From: Bacteroidota bacterium
GTDB taxonomy: Bacteria; Bacteroidota; Bacteroidia; B-17B0; Aurantibacillaceae
Reading direction: 5' to 3'
Length of the DNA stretch: 64,000 bases
NCBI GenBank assembly: GCA_043772435.1
Contig: JAYVGH010000036.1
Coordinates: 19,375 to 83,374 of the forward strand
The notes under the pieces are model-generated. The model was not told where the DNA came from. It did no database searches and saw only the letters and a list, made by a program, of their open reading frames with translations. Of this stretch, positions 3,569 through 37,828 are shown in pieces. Position 1 is the stretch's first letter. Every line of letters starts with the position of its first letter. Both the position numbers and the translations under genes were made by a program.

Positions 3569-4405
3569 TTAAATTGTAGTTTTTTTAATTACATTAGTGT
3601 CATAATTTATTAACGAGATGAAATTTTCTTTAATAAATTTAAGCTTGATTTTCAAATTTTGATTGCTTGATACAAGCTCAGATTTTTTTATCAAAATATC
3701 ATTTAAAAACAAAAAAGATTTTAATTTGTTTTTTTTCCAAATTCCAAATTGATTTAAATAATTAATAAAGCTATTATCAGCTTTTGAAGTAATTGAATCG
3801 GAATTTAACACTCGCAAATAAACCGGGTTCATTTTATTTGAATTAATTATTTTATGACTTGGTTTAAAATAAAAATGAAAGTCATTATGTTCATTTTCAA
3901 TTAAGCGTATTCTTTTTTTAAATCTTTTATAATCTCCCGTGGGGAAATTTCCTACTTCTGCAAATGCGTGTGAAGATTTTATGATAGAGGTATTAGGGAA
4001 CCAATATTTTATTAATTGCGATATTTTGCCATTATCCATATTCAAAAAGCTATGGTATTTATCAACATAAACATCACATGAAGTTTCTGCAAGCGTATTT
4101 AAAAGAAACGGATTAAATACATCATCATCATCTAAACGAATGATATAATTAAATTCCAAGTTATTATCCAAATAATATTGCGTTGCCATTTGAAGCTTTT
4201 CTTCTTTGTGTCCTTCAAAATCTAAATATATAAAATTATCATGGTGCGTTTCATTATTCAACGGAGTTCCTATTAACAGGGCTTTCCAGTTAGTGTAATT
4301 TTGAGAAATAAGTGCATTAAAACACAGCTTTCTTAAAAAAAGTCTGCTTTTAGTTAATGAAACGGGCGGAGATAAAGGAACAATGAAAAGAAAAGAGTTT
4401 GACAA
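3569..4405 (-). CDS. Divergent GT-A (GT2-like) glycosyltransferase
   Basis: SQNYTNWKALLI and IIRLDDDD (DxD) motifs; glycan locus context. Confidence 0.5.
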   Translation of the reverse strand: MSNSFLFIVPLSPPVSLTKSRLFLRKLCFNALISQNYTNWKALLIGTPLNNETHHDNFIYLDFEGHKEEKLQMATQYYLDNNLEFNYIIRLDDDDVFNPFLLNTLAETSCDVYVDKYHSFLNMDNGKISQLIKYWFPNTSIIKSSHAFAEVGNFPTGDYKRFKKRIRLIENEHNDFHFYFKPSHKIINSNKMNPVYLRVLNSDSITSKADNSFINYLNQFGIWKKNKLKSFLFLNDILIKKSELVSSNQNLKIKLKFIKENFISLINYDTNVIKKTTI

Positions 4406-4406
4406 T

Positions 4407-4811
4407 TTAAAGTTCTTTTAATTTATTTTTATAATAAGAAGTTGATAAACCATGGCTTCTATTTGTATAAAAAATTTCTATATTTAAGTTGTTGCCTGTA
4501 ATAGGTTTACCTTTATAGTCATCTCCTAAAAAACGAACGTTAATACTTTTTGTTTTTAAAATTTGTAACAATTCTTCTTCAGAATTATATACTAAAACCT
4601 CATCTACAAATTTGCAGCTTTCCAGTATTAATTTACGTTCAGTTATTGTAAAAAGCGGCGATTTTTTATCCGGGTTTATACTCTTATCAATATTTTCAGC
4701 TTTATTTAAAGCAACTATAAGGTAATCGCAATGCGCCTTGCATTCCTGAAGCATTAAAACATGGCCTACATGAAACAAATCGAAAATACCGCATGCAAAA
4801 CCTCTTCTCAC
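4407..4811 (-). CDS. Stand-alone cytidylyltransferase-family nucleotidyltransferase (TagD/RfaE-II fold)
   Basis: GIFDLFHVGH (HxGH), RFLGDDY, C-terminal RSHGLSTS. Confidence 0.85.
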   Translation of the reverse strand: MRRGFACGIFDLFHVGHVLMLQECKAHCDYLIVALNKAENIDKSINPDKKSPLFTITERKLILESCKFVDEVLVYNSEEELLQILKTKSINVRFLGDDYKGKPITGNNLNIEIFYTNRSHGLSTSYYKNKLKEL

Positions 4812-5729
4812 TTATAAATTATCTTTAATATACTTTTTAATATCATTTTCGGGTAACCATCCTAAAAGCGTTTTTGCTTTTTCTACATCGGCAAATGTTA
4901 TTTCTGATTCACCTTCTCTTTTTTCTATAAATTTAAAATCGGGAGAAATCATTTTAGCTAGTTCGAGTACTGTTATTGTTGAACCATTCCCGATATTAAA
5001 CGATGTATTTAATTTTTGGGAATGTATTGCCGCAAAGTAATTTGCTTTTGCAAGGTCATGCACATGTATAAAATCACGCTGCTGCATTCCATCACCCGTT
5101 ACAAGAGGCGGCTGACCCGTTTTATACCTGTGTAAGAAAATACCTACCACACTGCTATAGGCGTTAAATTTATTATCAGGATTAAAACTACGTGGGCCAT
5201 ATGGATTAAAATAACGCAAACAAATATAATTTAGAGGGTATCGTGTACTCAACAGTTCAAGATATTTTTCTACTTCATACTTTTGAAAGGCATATGGGCT
5301 CAAGCAATCTATCTTTTCAGTTTCAGGGGTAGGGATAGTTTCAGGAGTACCGTATATTGCACTAGAACTACTGAAAATAAATTTCGGAAAATTATTTTCT
5401 TTAATCATTAATTCAATTAAGTGCATTGAATTGGTAAGGTTTTCAGTAATATGTTCTGTTACAAATTCAAAACTCGGCTGAATTCTAGGTAAAGCCGCTA
5501 AATGAAATATACAATCATATTGTTTTAAGCTTTTCAAATTTCCGATAGAATCTTCTGTAAAAGAAAAACGAGAGTTATCTATATGGCTTTGTATATTCTT
5601 TTTATTGCCTGTACTAAAATTATCAATACCTGTTATATTCCAATTCGTTTTTTCAATAAGGTAATCCAATAAATTTGACCCAATAAACCCGGCAACACCG
5701 GTAATTAAAACATTATTTATTTTCTTCAT
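4812..5729 (-). CDS. NAD-dependent epimerase/dehydratase (extended SDR)
   Basis: ITGVAGFIGS, SSSSAIYG, YAFQK (YxxxK), LRYFNPYGP. Confidence 0.9.
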   Translation of the reverse strand: MKKINNVLITGVAGFIGSNLLDYLIEKTNWNITGIDNFSTGNKKNIQSHIDNSRFSFTEDSIGNLKSLKQYDCIFHLAALPRIQPSFEFVTEHITENLTNSMHLIELMIKENNFPKFIFSSSSAIYGTPETIPTPETEKIDCLSPYAFQKYEVEKYLELLSTRYPLNYICLRYFNPYGPRSFNPDNKFNAYSSVVGIFLHRYKTGQPPLVTGDGMQQRDFIHVHDLAKANYFAAIHSQKLNTSFNIGNGSTITVLELAKMISPDFKFIEKREGESEITFADVEKAKTLLGWLPENDIKKYIKDNL

Positions 5730-6240
5730 TAATAATATCTAAAATAGTATGTAAGATGGTTTGGTGGTAACATTCTACAATGCCATATGATGTTGAATTA
5801 AGATAAAAATTGATTTTACCTTTATTTACTAATTTATTATCACTTTTAAAACCAGAAAGTGTAATAACATTTTTATTAACGGTATTTGCATAATCAACCG
5901 CGTTATTGATGTTAGACGAATTTCCTGAACTGCTTATTGCTACAAGTAGGTCATCTTTTTTATAATATACTTTCAGCCATTCCACCATTGCGTATTCATA
6001 ACCATAATCATTAGAAAAACATGTGATAAGCGATGCATCCGTAAACGAAAAAGATTCATATTTTAAAACCTTGGCAAAGTCTTCCATTAAGTGCGAGCTG
6101 ATAGAATTAGAACCACCGTTACCGATAAAAAAAATACGTTTATGGCCTTGTATTAATTTAACCGACTCGAGTATTTGTTCGTCAATTGTTTTAGAATTTA
6201 AAAATTCTATAAATTTTTCTTTATAAGTATTGAGCAGCAT
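5713..6240 (-). CDS. gmhA: Phosphoheptose isomerase, SIS domain (GmhA-like)
   Basis: FFIGNGGS, ITCFSNDYGY, AISSSGNS, YGIVECYH. Confidence 0.75.
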   Translation of the reverse strand: MLLNTYKEKFIEFLNSKTIDEQILESVKLIQGHKRIFFIGNGGSNSISSHLMEDFAKVLKYESFSFTDASLITCFSNDYGYEYAMVEWLKVYYKKDDLLVAISSSGNSSNINNAVDYANTVNKNVITLSGFKSDNKLVNKGKINFYLNSTSYGIVECYHQTILHTILDIINEENK

Positions 6241-7090
6241 GGTTTAATAATAATTTTTTTGTGACAGATTTTTCATTGCATAACCAAGTTGTAGATAAAC
6301 TCGCAGCCAAAGACGGTAAATATAAAGTATTCTTTTCTTTTTTTAAATGCGACATTACGCAAGCAAAAGCGAAAAAAGTATCTCCAGCTCCAATTGTATC
6401 TACTACCGTTGTTTTAAAAGATGGATGTGTTTCTACAACTATTCCGTTTGTAAAAGTAGAGCCTGATTTGCCAGTTGTTACAAATAATTTTTCACAGTTT
6501 AATTCATACGAAAAAATTTCCAATATGTCTTTATCCTTCGGATTTTCTATACGTTTATTAACTTGTAAGCTTGCTTCCCGCAAATCAATGCATGCACTTT
6601 TTTTTCGCTTATTTTTCCATTTTGAGATTCGGTTAAATCCATAATTATTGGAATTTGTTTGGCACATTAAATGAAAGCCGTCAGTTATTTCTAACTTATC
6701 ACAGAAACCATGCCCAAAGTCAGCAACAATTACAATATCATAGTCAGCGGTGTTAACTGAAATGGTTTTAAAATTTTCAGTATCAAATTTATTAATCTCT
6801 ACATGTTTTTTCTTATCACCCACGTCCACATAACGCGTTTTCACTATCTCTCCTTTTGTATTTGTAATCACGTTAACTTCTTTCACAAAATCATATAAAT
6901 GATTGGCAATAGCTTGTGCCCCTCCTTGCTGAACTGTTTTTTCGCTTTCGAGTTGAAATACCGGGCAAAATGATTTCATGGATTGGCCTTCATAAGAAAC
7001 ATCGATAAATTCATCAATAATAGTTTCTCCAACCACCAATACTTTTAAATCTTTTATTTCTTCGAAAATTGTATTTAAATATTCTACCAT
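6221..7090 (-). CDS. PfkB-family sugar-phosphate kinase (RfaE/HldE kinase-domain-like, stand-alone)
   Basis: LVVGETIIDEF, GGAQAIANHL, VIVADFGHG, VVDTIGAGDTF anion-hole motif. Confidence 0.75.
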   Translation of the reverse strand: MVEYLNTIFEEIKDLKVLVVGETIIDEFIDVSYEGQSMKSFCPVFQLESEKTVQQGGAQAIANHLYDFVKEVNVITNTKGEIVKTRYVDVGDKKKHVEINKFDTENFKTISVNTADYDIVIVADFGHGFCDKLEITDGFHLMCQTNSNNYGFNRISKWKNKRKKSACIDLREASLQVNKRIENPKDKDILEIFSYELNCEKLFVTTGKSGSTFTNGIVVETHPSFKTTVVDTIGAGDTFFAFACVMSHLKKEKNTLYLPSLAASLSTTWLCNEKSVTKKLLLNHAAQYL

Positions 7091-7091
7091 A

Positions 7092-8081
7092 CTATTTATA
7101 AAGATACTGTTTTATGTATTCTAAAATTTGTTGTTCATTAAAAGCATATGCGATTTTTTTTTTGCTCAAATTTTTTCGGAACCTAATTGTATCAATTAAA
7201 CCTTTTATAGGAGGTTGACCATTAAATATTAATAAAACATTTGTATTTGAATAAATTCCTATATGAATGGCTCCTGAGTGTTGAGTAATTATAAGATTAG
7301 CATTACAACATTTTTCTATAATCACTTTATTATTTGTAGAAAGGCAGGCCTCTATATTTGCTTCGGAATGTAATTCAGTACTCATGCTTGGATGACCGGT
7401 TATATACACTTTATCAAAATAAGGTGATACTAGCCTTGCAATTTGGATATAGTCCCAAGGTCCGCCGTTATTTGCGGTAACGCCGTTCCCCTTTTTTCTC
7501 GGAAAAATAACGCAAGAGTTTTCAGTTGTTGTTTTATACACATTTCTAATATTGTAAACTGATTGCCTTCCTTTTTTTAATTGCCAGTTTCTAAAAATAT
7601 ACCAATACATATTAGTATCGGCAATATTTAAAAATGCTTTTTTACTTTTTAAAGCAATATCAAAAAATTTATCAATTTCTTTTTGCACATCAGTTGGAGG
7701 GATAGTTTCATTTGAACTGGACGGTACTTCTGCAAAAAAATCCCTAAGCGGATAATATTTATAGATAATAGAGTTTCTCTTTTCATCTACTAAAAATGCC
7801 TTATGCAATTCCATCCCACAATAATGAATTTTAACACCTTGCTGATGTAAATGGCTTAAAAATGGTAGGTTATGTAACAAAAAATGCCCGAATTCTCCTT
7901 TAAAAGGACCATAGAAGCATTCTTTATCTTTTAACGCTTTTTTATAAAATGTGCGAATGTCTTTATAGGCTTTAAGAACTATTTTTAAATAGTGTAGTTT
8001 GCCTAACACATTTAGTTTTTTTTGTCCATTCCACACTGTGGTGGCTTCGTTTGAAACTATATAGTCTGATTCTGAACTCAA
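7092..8081 (-). CDS. Divergent GT9 (heptosyltransferase-like) protein
   Basis: C-terminal ANLIITQHSGAIHIGIYSNTNVLLIFNG aligns by eye to the GT9 signature (A.L.I.NDSGPMHLAAA.G.P...LFG). Adjacent to the kinase and GmhA. Confidence 0.45.
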   Translation of the reverse strand: MSSESDYIVSNEATTVWNGQKKLNVLGKLHYLKIVLKAYKDIRTFYKKALKDKECFYGPFKGEFGHFLLHNLPFLSHLHQQGVKIHYCGMELHKAFLVDEKRNSIIYKYYPLRDFFAEVPSSSNETIPPTDVQKEIDKFFDIALKSKKAFLNIADTNMYWYIFRNWQLKKGRQSVYNIRNVYKTTTENSCVIFPRKKGNGVTANNGGPWDYIQIARLVSPYFDKVYITGHPSMSTELHSEANIEACLSTNNKVIIEKCCNANLIITQHSGAIHIGIYSNTNVLLIFNGQPPIKGLIDTIRFRKNLSKKKIAYAFNEQQILEYIKQYLYK

Positions 8082-9316
8082 TTTAATTCTTGCAAAGTAG
8101 TAATTAATTGGTTAGTATGGTAGGCAAACGTGTGTTTTGAAATATCGTAGGATTTGTTAGGTATATTGTTGCTTTTAAGGTTTTCAATTAATGTAATAAT
8201 GTTTTTCTTAAGGTTTTGAGATGTAATATGAAAACCAAGATTTTCCTTTTCAATAAATTCAGACACTGCCCCCGCATTGCCAAAATAAAGAATTGGTTTC
8301 CTTAAGGCAACTAGTTCAAAAAATTTAGATGACATAGCATTTACCCTATCCTCAGCAAGAATAAGTATAACATAATCCGATTGCCTAACTTCGTTAAAAT
8401 AATCTACCGAATCAATAAACCCAAATCGTTTAATGGCAGGATGATTGAGCTGTTTTTCATAACCTTTAAGAGAAACATAAAAGTTACACTTAAGATCTTT
8501 ATGTTTGGATAGCCCATCTATTAAAGATTTTATAAGTTCAAGGCTTTCCTCAATGCGGTGGTAAAAAGCACCACCATATGTTAACACCACTGTATTATTT
8601 TGAGTTAGTAGAGGTTGTGTAACCAATTCCATATCTTCATCGTCAAAACAATGGGGTAACAAAAAAATTCTTTTGTTGGAGATGCTTTTATAATACTCTT
8701 CCATTTCTTGATTAGGAACCAATATTAGGTCTACTATCTCCAACAACCTTTGTTGTTGCTGCTTTTCAAACTTAACTTGATTCGCGGTTAAACCCTGAAA
8801 ATCATCCTCCCAGTAGTCCCTGTAATCAATTATAAACTTTGTTGAAGGAAATTTTATTTTTAATTTAGGAATTATATTGCTGTAAAAAAATGGACCCATA
8901 CTAATAAGCACATATTTATAGTTTTCAACACTCATAAGGGTTTCCGCCTCTTTATAAAATCTATTTTCATTCCCTCTTGATACATCTCTGTAATTACCCC
9001 GTAACCACTTTTTTCTAATTTGCCAAATAATGTATGAAATTTTCCAATAAACTTTTTCAAAAAAACCCACGGGCAATTTTTTCATAAAAAAAGGATAATA
9101 CTTCCTTACCATTTTAAGCCGCTTTATGCTTTTTTCAAATAACATAATATCTTTATCCCATGCAGATTTACCAAAAAATGCTCCACAAAGTACATTAAAA
9201 TCTACTTTTTCTTTTTTTAGGTATTTGCAGTGTTTTGCCCATCGCCTCCCACCTACCTTACCATATGGTGGAAAATAAAAAGAGATGATAAGCATTTTTC
9301 CTAAAAAATGACTCAT
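8078..9316 (-). CDS. GT-B glycosyltransferase (paralog of 152..2446 N-domain)
   Basis: SFYFPPYGKVGGRRWAK, IIDYRDYW, SSKFFELVALRKPIL. Confidence 0.75.
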   Translation of the reverse strand: MSHFLGKMLIISFYFPPYGKVGGRRWAKHCKYLKKEKVDFNVLCGAFFGKSAWDKDIMLFEKSIKRLKMVRKYYPFFMKKLPVGFFEKVYWKISYIIWQIRKKWLRGNYRDVSRGNENRFYKEAETLMSVENYKYVLISMGPFFYSNIIPKLKIKFPSTKFIIDYRDYWEDDFQGLTANQVKFEKQQQQRLLEIVDLILVPNQEMEEYYKSISNKRIFLLPHCFDDEDMELVTQPLLTQNNTVVLTYGGAFYHRIEESLELIKSLIDGLSKHKDLKCNFYVSLKGYEKQLNHPAIKRFGFIDSVDYFNEVRQSDYVILILAEDRVNAMSSKFFELVALRKPILYFGNAGAVSEFIEKENLGFHITSQNLKKNIITLIENLKSNNIPNKSYDISKHTFAYHTNQLITTLQELN

Positions 9317-18523: not shown

Positions 18524-19746
18524 TTATTTAATAGTCTTTGAAACCAATTTTTATTAGACTCCAAATCAATTATTGAAGTTAATTTTTGTAAGGGAATATC
18601 TATTATATATTTATTAAACCAATTTTGGCTTTCTGAAGCTCGGTGCTTGTAATAGGATGGATCATTTAAAAAATTATTAAAATGTTGAAGACAACTTTCC
18701 TCTGAATTAGCATGGTTAACAGGGTATAGTTCTGGATAAGCTTCTTTAAACGATTCAACACTACAATTAAGTATAAAAGGCACTTTCATCATCATAAATT
18801 CTCCAACAGTGCCATACATTAAAAAACTAAGTCCGAGTTCAGCTATACCAAGATCAACCATGCTCAGCACTATCATTAATTCTTTTCTGGGAGATTTTGG
18901 TAACCAAAAAATATGGTCATTTAAATCAAGTTCATGTATAAGTTCTTTAGTGGCGTCTATATCAATACCATATTCAAGTAAAATGAGTTTGGTTTTTTTG
19001 TCAGGATGTTGGGAGACAAATTTTTTAAAAGCTCTAATTAAAATATCATTTCTTTTGTTAGAAAATTCATCTTGCGGATTTTTCCAAGATTGTCTACAAT
19101 GTTGAATGAACAATAAATCATTTTCTAACCTTAACTTTTTAATTATTGGATAAAGTTTTGAAAATGAATAAAATTTTGAAATTTCTATATCATTAAATTC
19201 TCGGCTGTAAAAAACCGGCGGAAAAAAGTAGTGTCGTTGACCTTTTAAATTAAATTTTTTAAAAACTGGCTCTTGATCTGTAGTAAAATCAAAAATTACG
19301 TGTCGAGAATTCTCAATTCCTCTATATTGTAACTTTGGGTATATTTGATCAAATTTAGATTTATCATATACTTTTACATTTTCAAAAGGTGCCCAATAAA
19401 AATCAGAACCATATGGAATAAAAATATCTAATTTCTTATTAACTAATTCTAAAAATGCGGGAGTATAGCCACAGCCAATAATTAAATTATAACCTTTAAT
19501 TTTATTTAAAACATTGTTTTTTGTAACTGTACTCATCCATTGCTCATTATCAATCCAACCTGTTTTAACTATTTTAATATCGTTCTGTTCACTAAAAGTA
19601 TCATTTGAAGGTTGAAAGTGTTCATCTTCATTCACTAATAACACTTCGGTATCATACCCTTCATCTTTTAAAAAACGCGCAAGGGTAAACATGTTGTTGT
19701 TCATGTTGTAGATGCAGGCAATTTTGATCTTACTTTTATCGATCAT
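18520..19746 (-). CDS. Putative GT-B glycosyltransferase, divergent
   Basis: FIPYGSD, KRNDILIRAF and GEFMMMKVP in a GT4-like layout; locus context. Confidence 0.5.
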   Translation of the reverse strand: MIDKSKIKIACIYNMNNNMFTLARFLKDEGYDTEVLLVNEDEHFQPSNDTFSEQNDIKIVKTGWIDNEQWMSTVTKNNVLNKIKGYNLIIGCGYTPAFLELVNKKLDIFIPYGSDFYWAPFENVKVYDKSKFDQIYPKLQYRGIENSRHVIFDFTTDQEPVFKKFNLKGQRHYFFPPVFYSREFNDIEISKFYSFSKLYPIIKKLRLENDLLFIQHCRQSWKNPQDEFSNKRNDILIRAFKKFVSQHPDKKTKLILLEYGIDIDATKELIHELDLNDHIFWLPKSPRKELMIVLSMVDLGIAELGLSFLMYGTVGEFMMMKVPFILNCSVESFKEAYPELYPVNHANSEESCLQHFNNFLNDPSYYKHRASESQNWFNKYIIDIPLQKLTSIIDLESNKNWFQRLLNK

Positions 19747-32116: not shown

Positions 32117-33409
32117 TTAAATTGTTGTAATTTCTACATTTTTTATTTTCATGTAGGCATTCCCATGCTTTTCATTCCATTTATAATTATGCGATCCATC
32201 CTCAGAATCAGCTGTCACTTCAAATTCAGCAATTTTTTCAATAAGATCAATAGCTTCTCCGGTATAATGCATAAACGCTGGAGAAATATGATATTTACCA
32301 GGCAAAAAACTATCGTGTAATTTAATAACGAGTTGGTGTTTGCCTTTTGGTAAAGATATAGTTTTAGTGCTACTTTCGGGATATTCAATATATGAGATTT
32401 TTTGCATATCATCGTTTAGTACTGAAAAAGAAAAAATAAGATCCTTCACGTCTTCAATCAATTCAAAATTCATTATAATATTGATGGTCTCTCTAAAAAA
32501 AAACTTTCTACTAATTTCATTTGCTTTATTAATTGTAGAAATGAAATCAATAAATCCTTTACCATTGTTATATAATCGTTTATAATTTCTAGGAATCTCT
32601 CCAGTTATTAAGGTTTGATCGTCTCTGGAAAAATACTGGTTTATAACTTCATTAGTTTTTCCATTAGCTTTTAATAATCCATTTTCTAAAAATACTGCTC
32701 TAGTGCAAAGTTGTTTTACAGCTCCCATATTATGGCTAACAAATAAAACAGTTCTACCTTGCCCACTTACATCTTTCATTTTGCCTATGCACTTATCCTG
32801 AAATTCCTGATCTCCTACTGCCAACACTTCATCAACTATCAAAATATCCGGTTCAAGATGTGCGGCAACTGCAAATGCAAGTCTAACGTACATACCAGAT
32901 GAATATCTTTTTACAGGGGTATCAATATAGCGTTCTACACCACTAAAAGCAATTATTTCATCAAACTTTTGCTGTATTTCTTTTTTTTTCATTCCAAGTA
33001 TAGCTCCGTTTAAAAAGATGTTATCTCGCCCTGAAAGTTCAGGGTGAAATCCAGTACCAACTTCTAATAAACTGGTAACTTTTCCTTTTATTTTATACTC
33101 ACCAATAGTGGGGCTTGTTGTGCGCGAAAGTATTTTAAGTAGGGTTGATTTTCCTGCCCCATTTCTACCAATTATTCCAAGAACTTCGCCCTTTTCAACC
33201 TTTATATTTATATCATTTAAAGCCCACACATAATTACTTGAAGCTTTTAAAGTACGGTCGTTTTCTTCTCCAATTTTTAAATAAGGGTCTTCTTTTCCTC
33301 TAATTTGGTACCACCATCTGTTTAAATCTTCGCCTACCGAACGAGAACTTAATTGACCTAGCCTGTATTGTTTACCTAAATTATTTATTTCTATTACTGT
33401 TTCGGGCAT
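32117..33409 (-). CDS. wzt: Glycan ABC exporter ATPase with C-terminal Wzt_C-like domain
   Basis: GRNGAGKST, YSSGMYVRLAF, ILIVDE, plus a beta-rich C-terminal extension. Confidence 0.92.
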   Translation of the reverse strand: MPETVIEINNLGKQYRLGQLSSRSVGEDLNRWWYQIRGKEDPYLKIGEENDRTLKASSNYVWALNDINIKVEKGEVLGIIGRNGAGKSTLLKILSRTTSPTIGEYKIKGKVTSLLEVGTGFHPELSGRDNIFLNGAILGMKKKEIQQKFDEIIAFSGVERYIDTPVKRYSSGMYVRLAFAVAAHLEPDILIVDEVLAVGDQEFQDKCIGKMKDVSGQGRTVLFVSHNMGAVKQLCTRAVFLENGLLKANGKTNEVINQYFSRDDQTLITGEIPRNYKRLYNNGKGFIDFISTINKANEISRKFFFRETINIIMNFELIEDVKDLIFSFSVLNDDMQKISYIEYPESSTKTISLPKGKHQLVIKLHDSFLPGKYHISPAFMHYTGEAIDLIEKIAEFEVTADSEDGSHNYKWNEKHGNAYMKIKNVEITTI

Positions 33410-33410
33410 A

Positions 33411-34265
33411 TTATACTGTATCCATAAATGTTTTTTCTGTTTTATTAAAAACTATAACAGAAATAAAAAAAGTTATTAGTATAACACCAAAGCCTATAAA
33501 TAAATAATGCCAAGAGAATAAACCATGACCTGTTAAAGCAAATTTTATAGCCTCTAAACAAATTAAAATTGGATTATACATCAATATATGTTTTACTTTA
33601 TCAGGATATATTGTAATTGGAAAAACTACACAACTAATGTACATTATAAATTGCACCCCAAAACCTAATACAAAGGTTAAATCTCTATATTTAGTAGTAA
33701 AAGAAGAAAAAATAATACCTATACTTAAACCCAATATTCCTAAAAAAATAACGATTAAGGGAATAATCAACATGTATATGGGCTGAGGAGTTACATTTTC
33801 TGAGGTTGTAACATAATAAAAATAAACACATAGAAATAGAATAATTTGTAAAATTAATTTAAAGAGGTTTGAAATTATAATTGATATAGGCATGACCAAG
33901 CGTGGAAAATAAACTTTACCAAAAATTGATGCGTTTGCAATAAACGTATTTGAAGTTTTGTTTAAACAATCTGCAAAATAGTTCCAAAAAGTTTGACCCA
34001 TAAGATAAAACAGTATTGGTGGTATGCCATCGGTACTAATTTTAGCGCTTTTACTAAACGTAAATGTATATATAGCTGTGGTAAACAATGGTTGTAATAA
34101 CATCCATAAAGGTCCTAAAACAGTTTGTTTATATAGTGATGTAATATCTCTTTTTACCATTATCATCACTAAATCTCTATATTCCCATACTTCTCTAATA
34201 TTAAAAGTAAAAATAGAAGTCTTAGGTTTTACAATTATATCCCATTTTTCGTCAGTATCTCCCAT
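33411..34265 (-). CDS. wzm: Glycan ABC exporter permease
   Basis: YKQTVLGPLW, KVYFPRL, KYRDL, YNP; six hydrophobic segments. Confidence 0.92.
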   Translation of the reverse strand: MGDTDEKWDIIVKPKTSIFTFNIREVWEYRDLVMIMVKRDITSLYKQTVLGPLWMLLQPLFTTAIYTFTFSKSAKISTDGIPPILFYLMGQTFWNYFADCLNKTSNTFIANASIFGKVYFPRLVMPISIIISNLFKLILQIILFLCVYFYYVTTSENVTPQPIYMLIIPLIVIFLGILGLSIGIIFSSFTTKYRDLTFVLGFGVQFIMYISCVVFPITIYPDKVKHILMYNPILICLEAIKFALTGHGLFSWHYLFIGFGVILITFFISVIVFNKTEKTFMDTV

Positions 34266-35461: not shown

Positions 35462-37828
35462 TTATTTTTTATAACCATACCCTTTGCCATACCCATAGCC
35501 ATATCCATATCCATAACTATAGCCATAACCCTGATAATAATAACGTTTACCCATACGGTGTGTTCCGTTTAAAACTAACAACATATTTTTAATGTTATTA
35601 TCTTCAATTACAGACTCAATAAATGTAATTACCTTTTTAGTGCTAGTTTTTGTGTTTAATACAAAAATTGCCGAATCAACATATTGAATTAAATAAATTG
35701 AATCAGATAAAATACCGGCTGGAGGGGTATCAATAATAACAAAATCAAAATTTTGTTTAGCCAAATTTATAATTTCTTTTAATCTTTCCGATAAAACAAA
35801 TTCAGATGGGTTAGGAGGTATAGGCCCGCAAAATAAACAAAATAAATTTGGAATTTGAGTGGGTGTTATTATTTCTTCAAAAGTATTTTGACCACTTATG
35901 CACGTAGTTAAACCAATAGTTTGCACAGGTAAGCCAAAACGTTTATAAATACGTGGTTTGTGTAAATCTAATTCTATTAACAACGTTTTTTTACCGCTAC
36001 GCGCCATTATGGTAGCCAAATTTATACTCGTAAACGTTTTTCCTTCTCCCGGCGAGAAGGAAGTGATCAAATAGGTTTTGGCTTGCTTATCTACATTTGT
36101 GTATTGCAGGTTTGTTCTAAAATTTCTAAAAGATTCTGATATTAAAGAGTTTGGTTTTTGCTCAACAATTATACCATCGTTGCCTCCATCTTTTACATAC
36201 GGAAAAACGCCTACCAAAGGCAAATCCGTTAATTCTTTTAAATGATCGACAGACGTTATTTTTGAAAAGAAAAATGCTCTAAGAATAATTATAACAATTG
36301 AAAGTAATAAACCAAAGGACATAATTTTTTTTTGGATAGCAGCCTTATCCGGCTCTACTACTCCCAAATTACGCGGCGATTCAATCACTTTTATATCCGG
36401 TATTATACTTGCTTTTGCAATTTTTGTATTAGCTCTTTTTTGTAATAAAAAATTATACAAATCTTCATTAACATTGGCTTTACGCTGTATGTTTAAAACA
36501 TCGCGTTGTTTACCGGGAATTAATTTAGCTTCAGATATATATTTATCTATTTCCTTCTCAATATTTTCCATATTTAATACTGTTGCTTTGCGAGTATTAT
36601 TTATGTAAACCAATAAATCCTGTTTTATCTTTTTTATGTTGGATTTTAAATCACCTATTATAGGATTATTTTCTTTTGCAACATTGTATAATTTATTTAA
36701 TTCAATTTGTTTTGAATATAGCTCTATAATTGCTTGCCCCATAAAACCGCCTTTTTCTGTAATAAAAACTCCAGGCGGTAAAAACTGTGGGTCTTTATCT
36801 TCAATAATATATTTTTCTAAATCGGACAAAGAGGCTAACTGTAGTTGTTGAGAAGATTTTTCGTTATCATATCTCGAAATTTTACCTAAAAAATCGCTTT
36901 GCTCCCAGTTTAAATCAATAATGGATTTTTTTTCCTTATAATTTTGCATAGTATCTTCTATGCTTTTTAAGGAATAGCTAATTTCGTCCAATTGCTTGTC
37001 AATGTAAACAATGGTTCGTTCATTTAACTCAAATTTTGTTTTTAAACGATTACTGGAGTAAACTCTGTTAAGTGTGTCTAATATTAATACTGCTCTTTCT
37101 GCAATAACATCTTTTAATCCAAGTTCTAAAATATTAGTATATTCCGGATTATTGATTGTCATTTTAGATTGTATATTACCTATTAAATAACCTTCGCTAT
37201 GAAACGAGAATTGATAAAAAATACTTTTTAAGGCATCAACTGTTTCTATTGAAAAGTTTCCTTCTCGGCTAATATTTATATTAAAGTCTAAGTCAATTAA
37301 ATCTGTATTAAACTTGCCTTTTTTTACTTGCGAAACGCCATTTTGGTCAAACGATATTTCATAATTGTTATAATCAATTATTTTAAAATCAAATACTTGT
37401 TCATATAAATTAGAATTAATTAAGCTTACATTAATTTTAAACGGCATACCACTAAATTGTTCCGTTTTGCGAACTTTGCCTACAATAAAATAGGATACCT
37501 GCAGCTTATCTTTTAATTTATTTACTACTTGACTAGCTAAATCATAAGATTGTAAAACCCTAACTTCGTTTAAGTTATCAACGTACGAGCCATAGCTGTA
37601 AAACCCTTCCTCACTTAATACACTTGCTTGATTATAAGTATCATTTACTTTTAAAAGTAATTGGGTAGATGCTTGATAAACATTTGTTAATCTGTACACA
37701 TAAAAAGTACCAATTGTGTACAAAATTGGTAAAATTATTAACGGCACCCACCAATTTGATTTAACTATTCGCCATAAAAGGTTTAAATCTTTTTGGGATA
37801 TTATAGACTGTTTTTTGGTTTCCGCCAC
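35462..37828 (-). CDS. wzc: Wzc/GumC polysaccharide co-polymerase, BY tyrosine kinase
   Basis: Two TM helices flanking a periplasmic coiled coil, ESFRNFRTNL, Walker A SPGEGKT, LIELDLHKP, IIDTPP, Tyr-rich tail. Confidence 0.9.
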   Translation of the reverse strand: MAETKKQSIISQKDLNLLWRIVKSNWWVPLIILPILYTIGTFYVYRLTNVYQASTQLLLKVNDTYNQASVLSEEGFYSYGSYVDNLNEVRVLQSYDLASQVVNKLKDKLQVSYFIVGKVRKTEQFSGMPFKINVSLINSNLYEQVFDFKIIDYNNYEISFDQNGVSQVKKGKFNTDLIDLDFNINISREGNFSIETVDALKSIFYQFSFHSEGYLIGNIQSKMTINNPEYTNILELGLKDVIAERAVLILDTLNRVYSSNRLKTKFELNERTIVYIDKQLDEISYSLKSIEDTMQNYKEKKSIIDLNWEQSDFLGKISRYDNEKSSQQLQLASLSDLEKYIIEDKDPQFLPPGVFITEKGGFMGQAIIELYSKQIELNKLYNVAKENNPIIGDLKSNIKKIKQDLLVYINNTRKATVLNMENIEKEIDKYISEAKLIPGKQRDVLNIQRKANVNEDLYNFLLQKRANTKIAKASIIPDIKVIESPRNLGVVEPDKAAIQKKIMSFGLLLSIVIIILRAFFFSKITSVDHLKELTDLPLVGVFPYVKDGGNDGIIVEQKPNSLISESFRNFRTNLQYTNVDKQAKTYLITSFSPGEGKTFTSINLATIMARSGKKTLLIELDLHKPRIYKRFGLPVQTIGLTTCISGQNTFEEIITPTQIPNLFCLFCGPIPPNPSEFVLSERLKEIINLAKQNFDFVIIDTPPAGILSDSIYLIQYVDSAIFVLNTKTSTKKVITFIESVIEDNNIKNMLLVLNGTHRMGKRYYYQGYGYSYGYGYGYGYGKGYGYKK
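35465..35542 (-). repeat. Gly-Tyr coding hexamer repeat (Wzc phospho-acceptor tail)
   Basis: Encodes YYYQGYGYSYGYGYGYGYGKGYGYKK; tandem ccata-type units on the + strand. Confidence 0.8.

Follow-up and report, generated by a model that had tools for sequence, protein, structure and literature searches.

Organization of the module in the glycan gene cluster

The DNA analyzed here (the window) is a stretch of 64,000 nucleotides (positions 19,375 to 83,374 of the forward strand of contig JAYVGH010000036.1, assembly GCA_043772435.1) from an uncultured Bacteroidota bacterium of the family Aurantibacillaceae. Its first 37.8 kb form a single minus-strand glycan cluster, and near the distal end of this ~37-kb ABC-transporter-type cluster lie six contiguous minus-strand open reading frames (ORFs), at the positions given in an earlier note on this DNA. 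They encode a putative GT-B glycosyltransferase (ORF329), a PfkB-family sugar kinase (KIN), a SIS-domain phosphosugar isomerase (SIS), an extended short-chain dehydrogenase/reductase (SDR), a PF01467 nucleotidyltransferase (NT), and a putative GT-A glycosyltransferase (ORF278) (Table 1). The gene boundaries overlap or abut (8081/8078, 7092/7090, 6240/6221, 5729/5713, 4812/4811, and 4407/4405), and the six ORFs therefore constitute one translationally coupled operon. The results below suggest that this module is accessory and horizontally mobile among Bacteroidota, and that it probably represents a form of the four-step beta-type nucleoside diphosphate (NDP)-heptose pathway plus a transferase, with very divergent enzymes and with GmhB supplied in trans.

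Table 1. Genes of the putative heptose module, other features of the glycan cluster, and further heptose-related genes of the same genome
Feature	Position	Strand	Basis or remark
ORF329, GT-B glycosyltransferase with GT9-like fold, sequence orphan, candidate heptosyltransferase	7092..8081	-	329 aa; AlphaFold2 (AF2) and Foldseek
KIN, divergent PfkB-family sugar kinase, proposed heptose-7-phosphate 1-kinase (HldA-like role)	6221..7090	-	PF00294; rfaE_dom_I
SIS, GmhA-like SIS-domain phosphosugar isomerase, separate subfamily	5713..6240	-	TIGR00441; residue conservation
SDR, GalE-like NDP-sugar epimerase, optional tailoring step	4812..5729	-	PF01370; SSSSAIYG, YxxxK
NT, PF01467 nucleotidyltransferase with HxGH and C-terminal RSHGLSTS, predicted heptose-1-phosphate nucleotidyltransferase	4407..4811	-	TIGR01518, rfaE_dom_II
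ORF278, GT-A (GT2-like) DxD glycosyltransferase	3569..4405	-	AF2 and Foldseek; DDDD
Wzz/tyrosine-kinase-like protein	35462-37828	-	Part of the window glycan cluster
Wzm/Wzt ABC exporter, Wzt_C domain present	32117-34265	-	Glycan cluster
GmhA-, GmhB-, and HddC-like heptose genes	C81:4000-18000 (L009)		Profile scores
HddA-like GHMP kinase	C119:~7797-8063 (L123)		405 bits, cut-off 600
True GT9, heptosyltransferase family	C123:72895-73584 (L007)		PF01075

Family relationships of the kinase, the isomerase, and the SDR

The kinase matched PF00294 with 32.7 bits, and its top NCBIfam match was rfaE_dom_I (TIGR02198; 48 bits, cut-off 345). Its N-terminus was matched, colinearly, solely by HldE-type models, and the protein keeps the PfkB domain and a DTIGAGD sequence containing the GAGD catalytic motif. 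For the SIS protein, GmhA models were the top matches (gmhA TIGR00441, 69 bits, cut-off 209.45), and a second copy on contig C81 of the same genome scored 190 bits. Alignment with Escherichia coli GmhA revealed that H61, N93, D94, S119, S121, S124, H175, and H180 are invariant, that E65 is replaced by Asp with E64 kept, that Q172 is replaced by Glu, and that D169 is not conserved. We take H61, E65, Q172, and H180 of GmhA to be catalytic or metal residues, and S119, S121, and S124 to bind phosphate. The SDR, which is 65-81% identical across loci and 27% identical to E. coli HldD, matched PF01370 with 165 bits; it scored 152 bits for GalE and 108 bits for HldD (TIGR02197, cut-off 274.6), both under the cut-offs, and it carries the epimerase-type motifs SSSSAIYG and YxxxK. 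Judged from these profile scores, 'heptose-type' is a reasonable label for the module enzymes, but none of them is an orthologue of the named E. coli enzymes.

The nucleotidyltransferase and its Arg-first clade

The NT matched the TagD model TIGR01518 over its full length (69 bits, cut-off 165.4) and rfaE_dom_II (TIGR02199) with 63 bits (cut-off 181.5), the latter match ending before the C-terminus. It aligned end to end with Bacillus subtilis TagD, with RSHGLSTS opposite RTEGISTT, which bears out the remark in the earlier note that the C-terminal motif resembles that of TagD rather than that of HldE; domain II of E. coli HldE (29% identity) has FEDGCSTT at this site. When scored on the hidden Markov model (HMM) of the NT family, in which R118, H120, G121, and S123 are invariant, TagD obtained 72 bits, TarD 60, and E. 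coli HldE domain II 55. By these scores the NT sits between the TagD and HldE groups, leaning modestly to TagD. An anchored phylogeny was dropped, as the best 150 representatives all fell inside the Arg-first clade and only three full-length outgroup anchors were available, and bit scores on the single HMM were used instead.

A profile search of 1.8 billion representative proteins placed the NT family in a broad clade (representatives P0241-P0390) with the motif R-x-H-G-(Y/W/F/I/L)-S-(S/T)-(S/T)-x-L-(R/K)-x-R, in which Arg comes first in 47 of the 55 motif-bearing representatives. The published consensus of heptose nucleotidyltransferases is (F/L)XXGXSTT, in which Arg at position 5 confers CTP/UTP promiscuity (PMC11573728, PMC11461863); position 5 is Leu in the window NT, Arg in Halocola ammonii, and Lys in one homologous operon (L114). 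Judged by its motif, the clade is a wide, uncharacterised group that breaks this consensus. Its members occur in SIS-NT (P0246, P0322), NT-HAD, GT2-NT, UDP-glucose dehydrogenase-NT, NT-methyltransferase (NT-TylF), and SET-NT fusions, and next to P0246, on a contig resembling those of eukaryotes or giant viruses, lies an SDR-GHMP-kinase fusion. Phages also encode members of the clade: a kinase-less SIS+NT pair lies beside tail collar and adaptor genes, and other phage members adjoin ribonucleotide reductase or holin (phage loci among L125/L126 5454-6480, L127, and L128/L129). The recurrent link of the clade to SIS proteins favours heptose rather than glycerol phosphate as the context in which these enzymes act.

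The two glycosyltransferases

ORF329 had no match in Pfam or NCBIfam, PF01075 included; the sole PF01075 match in the genome was the protein on C123. A profile of ORF329 found no match among PDB sequences even at E = 10, and when hhalign was run against an alignment of four GT9 sequences, ORF329 matched weakly and locally, with a probability of only 7%. This match pairs IITQHSGAIHIG of ORF329 with VVSVDTGLSHLTAA of WaaC, so that QHSGAIH sits opposite the GT9 signature VDTGLSH (of the D(S/T)GxxH type), and ORF329 has His at the position of WaaC Asp261. The link to GT9 therefore rests on the fold. An AF2 model built from a 28-sequence alignment was confident (predicted local distance difference test, pLDDT, 90.1; predicted TM-score, pTM, 0.90). 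In a Foldseek search of the PDB with this model, GT9 enzymes ranked first, namely 3tov followed by WaaF 1psw, WaaC 6dfe/2h1h, and the heptosyltransferase TibC (E 5e-6 to 1e-4, TM ~0.5), and generic GT-B enzymes ranked lower. The model thus confirms ORF329 as a predicted GT-B enzyme that is GT9-like at the fold level, the level at which its earlier description as a cryptic GT9 protein was right.

ORF278 had no Pfam match above noise, PF00535 included. Its AF2 model had a pLDDT of 74.8 overall and ~88 over the N-terminal 130 residues, and Foldseek matched it to CgT, RmlT, TarP, TarS, and WrtF at ~E 1e-8. Together with the sequence R90-x-DDDD, which is invariant in the family, the model confirms the predicted GT-A fold with a DxD motif, in agreement with the earlier description.

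GmhB and other heptose genes of the genome

As the earlier note stated, the window contains no GmhB-like gene. In the genome, matches to GmhB models were confined to contigs C81 and C51. The gene at C81:7143-7631 encodes a 181-aa HAD-IIIA GmhB-like protein that scored below the cut-off of NF006506 (136 bits, cut-off 178) and above that of TIGR01656 (119 bits, cut-off 84). It adjoins a gene for an HddC-like guanylyltransferase (232 bits, cut-off 300), itself beside a GT2 gene, and the near-canonical GmhA lies 4 kb from these two genes. With the HddA-like kinase on C119, these profile matches indicate that the genome carries a dispersed yet complete alpha-type GDP-heptose set besides the window module, and the C81 set probably lends its GmhB to the module. 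The idea that heptose is foreign to this lineage thus finds no support, as the genome holds GmhA-, HddA-, GmhB-, and HddC-like genes as well as a true GT9. Moreover, a GmhB-like gene was detected in 176 of the 185 genomes of the order, including 121 of the 123 high-quality ones, so that this Bacteroidota lineage seems to have heptose metabolism as a core trait.

Distribution and synteny of the module

The module kinase was found in 30 of the 185 genomes of the order, and the module is accordingly accessory. The kinase and ORF329 each had hundreds of homologues with 55-87% identity, almost all from Bacteroidota metagenome bins, and a scan of GTDB species genomes yielded 76 module loci; the cultured carriers were Crocinitomix algicola 0182 and Flavobacteriales DA487 (H. 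ammonii). Genes were counted in the 47 loci with enough flanking sequence. The kinase gene was present in all of them, followed by SIS (45), NT (44), ORF329 (36), SDR (35), and ORF278 (13), which makes KIN-SIS-NT the core of the module; this trio was kept in all 22 loci examined in detail. The gene order recurs in dozens of genomes and is therefore not a chance arrangement. A literature search for this module in Bacteroidota found no account of it.

Three homologous operons (L068, L075, and L114) have the order KIN-SIS-SDR-NT-GmhB-(GT9-like)-(GT-A) with overlapping stops and starts. The embedded gene encodes a GmhB-type phosphatase (NF006506, 119 bits), and in L068 its start overlaps the NT stop by 8 nt. 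As the matching coordinates show, none of these three genomes has a GmhB-like gene apart from the embedded one, nor do they have any GmhA-like gene apart from the module SIS gene, while in seven other carriers a GmhB-like gene and a canonical GmhA are both located elsewhere. Fisher tests of this complementary pattern gave p values of 0.001 (GmhB) and 0.008 (GmhA), the three genomes with embedded GmhB being related. The pattern argues for a GmhB step as part of the pathway, with the enzyme borrowed in genomes that already have a copy.

The trio can also stand alone: in genus g10 it lies beside a 10-11-TM (transmembrane segment) flippase-like protein, without a transferase. At ~6.2-10.9 kb in three loci (L039, L040, and L041, from genomes G116, G129, and G128, respectively), a 500-aa, 10-11-TM protein resembling a Wzx-type flippase precedes the trio, a secreted Ser/Thr/Asn-rich protein of ~280 aa follows it, and type IX-secreted NHL-repeat proteins adjoin. 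No glycosyltransferase gene is nearby in these loci, and two of the three genomes have no GmhB-like gene.

In H. ammonii and one metagenome-assembled genome (L010/L067 12387-15420; L033 10788-12903), genes of a nonulosonic acid pathway (NeuB-type and CMP-sugar synthetase) come after the module, in one case with a YhcH/DUF386 gene as well, which points to a glycan containing both heptose and sialic-acid-like sugars. Several carrier bins (L112, L117, L105, L066, L077, and L097) bear the public labels Candidatus Saccharibacteria, Akkermansia sp., Chitinophaga pinensis, or Marinicellaceae; wrong labels or contamination of the bins probably account for this, and not a true spread of the module across phyla.

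Proposed pathway and alternative explanations

From the folds, family relationships, synteny, and presence and distribution of GmhB observed above, we infer the substrates, the step order, the anomer, and the nucleotide (ADP, CDP, or another) of a pathway that would run as follows. The GmhA-like SIS protein would convert sedoheptulose-7-phosphate to D-glycero-D-manno-heptose-7-phosphate, which the PfkB kinase would phosphorylate at O-1; the 7-phosphate would then be removed by the GmhB-type HAD phosphatase encoded in trans on C81, and the PF01467 enzyme would make the NDP-heptose. This product may be epimerised by the GalE-like SDR before the GT9-like ORF329 attaches the heptose to the glycan that the Wzm/Wzt cluster around the module assembles, and the GT-A enzyme ORF278 may add the neighbouring sugar. 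A PfkB kinase and a PF01467 nucleotidyltransferase are the enzyme types of the beta route, so the module fits that route. Clustering is no requirement either, since gmhB is described as often unlinked, its loss as leaky, and anomer preference as a matter of degree (PMC8204981). The proposal of a heptose-type sugar-nucleotide module in the earlier note is supported.

A number of observations weigh against this beta-type pathway. No module enzyme scores above the curated cut-off of its own heptose family. Searching the PDB with the profile of the kinase family returned ribokinases and no HldA structure, and BLASTP of the kinase against E. coli HldE domain I gave E = 0.38; neither search produced a specific link of the kinase to HldA. 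The R69 loop of GmhA is deleted in the SIS protein. The NT scores slightly higher for TagD than for HldE on the family HMM, and its motif does not fit the consensus that all characterised heptose nucleotidyltransferases share (PMC11461863). As for the phosphatase, the C81 GmhB belongs to the alpha-type (HddA/HddC) set, and the Bacteroides thetaiotaomicron GmhB orthologue is reported to prefer the alpha anomer (PMC8204981). Two carriers, G128 and G129 (92% and 75% complete), have no detectable GmhB-like gene. Nearly every genome of the order has GmhB, so finding it in module carriers is not evidence specific to the module; order-wide, GmhB does not co-vary with the module, and this comparison was discarded as uninformative for the same reason. 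The informative signal comes from the three operons with an embedded GmhB, which may represent a single evolutionary event.

Among the alternatives, a dedicated cytidylyltransferase or other non-adenylyltransferase is the one that deserves most weight, and we regard it as a realistic possibility, though less likely than the pathway above. The pathway would keep its logic, but the Arg-first NT would then lead to CDP-heptose, and ORF329 would be a CDP-heptose-dependent transferase. The sequence R-x-H-G-L-S-T-S matches RTEGISTT of TagD and the motif of CCT/ECT rather than (F/L)XXGXSTT, the family HMM ranks TagD above HldE, CDP-/UDP-heptose synthesis by some heptose nucleotidyltransferases is documented (PMC11573728), and ORF329 is too divergent from ADP-heptose-using GT9 enzymes for detection by sequence. 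However, every heptose nucleotidyltransferase tested to date makes ADP-heptose (PMC11573728, PMC11461863), and the published determinant of promiscuity is Arg at motif position 5, where the window NT has Leu. The preference for TagD is only ~17 bits, and no residue-level rule could be used to tell cytosine from adenine. For the earlier proposal of a non-ADP heptose, for example CDP-heptose, the TagD-like motif is therefore suggestive and not decisive, and the nucleotide is not readable from sequence. The broader idea that the Arg-first PF01467 enzymes are distinct heptose-1-phosphate nucleotidyltransferases preferring CTP or another non-adenine NTP, and that ORF329 founds a heptosyltransferase family using that donor, is put forward with similar caution.

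It is much less probable that the pathway dispenses with a phosphatase, such that the NT uses heptose-1,7-bisphosphate and the product is an NDP-heptose-7-phosphate, or a phosphorylated heptose is transferred. In 44 of the 47 loci there is no HAD phosphatase within 8 kb of the kinase, the P0246 contig likewise has none near its SIS-NT and SDR-GHMP-kinase fusions, and the two carriers lacking a detectable GmhB-like gene would also agree with this explanation. On the other side, the embedded GmhB of L068, L075, and L114 is the sole copy in each genome, an NT-HAD fusion occurs in the clade, and of the 37 carriers whose module has no GmhB, 35 have a GmhB-like gene to draw on. The suggestion that the missing GmhB implies an NDP-heptose phosphate or heptitol-phosphate donor is consequently unsupported. 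The genome does hold a GmhB-like gene that could complete an ordinary route, which the earlier note had foreseen as a possible objection; the objection thus holds in part and speaks against the exotic donor.

Similarly improbable is that the sugar is no heptose at all, with the SIS protein and the kinase acting on another ketose or aldose phosphate to give a different NDP-sugar. Consistent with this, the SIS protein, the kinase, and the SDR are all far under the heptose-family cut-offs, the SIS protein conserves neither the R69 loop nor D169 of GmhA, and the kinase is as similar to ribokinases as to HldE. But the GmhA models rank top for the SIS protein, in which phosphate- and metal-binding positions are kept, the embedded phosphatase is of the GmhB type, and the transferase matches heptosyltransferases best.

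Least probable of these is a TagD-style reaction, in which the NT would cytidylylate the primary 7-phosphate of heptose-7-phosphate or a heptitol phosphate to give a CDP-7-heptose or CDP-heptitol donor, transferred as a phospho-sugar like CDP-glycerol or CDP-6-glucitol. The similarity to TagD extends over the full length and includes the motif, and no two genes are linked more tightly than SIS and NT (the fusions P0246 and P0322 and the kinase-less phage pair). A cytidylyltransferase and an SDR reductase of Campylobacter jejuni make CDP-6-glucitol (PMC10918830), but that enzyme is of the IspD type. The kinase would be superfluous in such a scheme and an in-module 7-phosphatase would destroy the substrate; furthermore, the transferases are GT9-like GT-B and GT-A enzymes, not TagF-, LicD-, or Stealth-type phosphotransferases, and the SDR motifs are those of a GalE-type epimerase. 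The C. jejuni CDP-6-fructose/CDP-glucitol system was rejected as a homologue, since its cytidylyltransferase belongs to PF01128 and not PF01467.

Comparison with known systems

The proposed beta-type pathway has its closest counterpart in the split ADP-L-glycero-beta-D-manno-heptose pathway (GmhA, HldA, GmhB, HldC, and HldD, with WaaC/WaaF) of Burkholderia and E. coli, with which the module has in common both the activities and the fold families (SIS, PfkB, HAD-IIIA, PF01467, extended SDR, and GT9-like GT-B). As in E. coli, gmhB is unlinked in the window genome. In contrast, the module enzymes are far under the equivalog cut-offs, the NT is Arg-first, the SDR is GalE-like rather than HldD, and ORF329 differs from WaaC/WaaF in being undetectable as GT9 by sequence and in the His at WaaC Asp261. 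The settings differ as well: the module lies in an accessory cluster of the O-antigen or capsule type, whereas the ADP-heptose pathway is linked to core genes of lipopolysaccharide.

The NDP-heptose enzymes of Tang et al. (Science 2024; summarised in PMC11573728 and PMC11461863) resemble the present case in comprising monodomain nucleotidyltransferases outside Proteobacteria, possible CDP-/UDP-heptose synthesis, and viral and eukaryote-like homologues. Their published hallmark is (F/L)XXGXSTT, and promiscuity is conferred by Arg at position 5, whereas in the Arg-first clade Arg occupies position 1 and position 5 is aromatic or aliphatic. The three architectures listed there do not include SIS-NT didomain fusions (PMC11573728, PMC11461863).

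TagD and TarD (PDB 1COZ and 2B7L) are the closest solved structures to the NT by sequence (62-73 bits, full length), sharing HxGH, GDD(W/Y), and R-T/S-x-G-I/L-S-T-T/S. However, the NT reaches 69 bits against a TagD cut-off of 165, and its gene is found together with those for a GmhA-like isomerase, a sugar kinase, GmhB, and a GT9-like transferase, with no glycerophosphotransferase of the teichoic-acid type among them. The alpha-type GDP-heptose route of the same genome (C81 and C119) likewise activates heptose for capsules or glycans, but by way of a GHMP kinase and a guanylyltransferase of the NTP_transferase fold, where the window module has a PfkB kinase and a PF01467 enzyme.

If the beta-type pathway proposed here is correct, some Bacteroidota would hold two routes of heptose activation, a near-universal alpha-type GDP route and an accessory beta-type route serving a variable surface glycan. 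The enzymes of the latter are unnamed by current family models and are annotated publicly as 'hypothetical' or 'PfkB family carbohydrate kinase', and KIN-SIS-(SDR)-NT with a GT9-like orphan could then serve as an annotation rule for a heptose module. If instead the NT prefers CTP, the module would provide the first physiological role for CDP-heptose, the function of which was called unknown in the 2024 literature, and this chemistry would extend, with SIS isomerases, to phages and eukaryote- or giant-virus-like genomes. The existence of dedicated CDP-heptose pathways is directly testable with three or four soluble enzymes. Relevance to ALPK1 is speculative because the carriers are environmental bacteria.

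Neighbouring genes of the cluster

Besides the features listed in Table 1, the glycan cluster encodes a NusG-like protein and many GT1/GT2/GT4 enzymes, amidotransferases, and SDRs. Two further genes lie close to the module, one for a 764-aa glycosyltransferase with a C-terminal domain (152-2446) and one for its 412-aa GT-B paralogue (8078-9316), and both proteins have the N-terminal motif FPP..GGRRWAK. Homologues of these two enzymes (~36-53% identity) often flank the heptose module elsewhere (L025-L037), and the two may act on the same glycan as the module.

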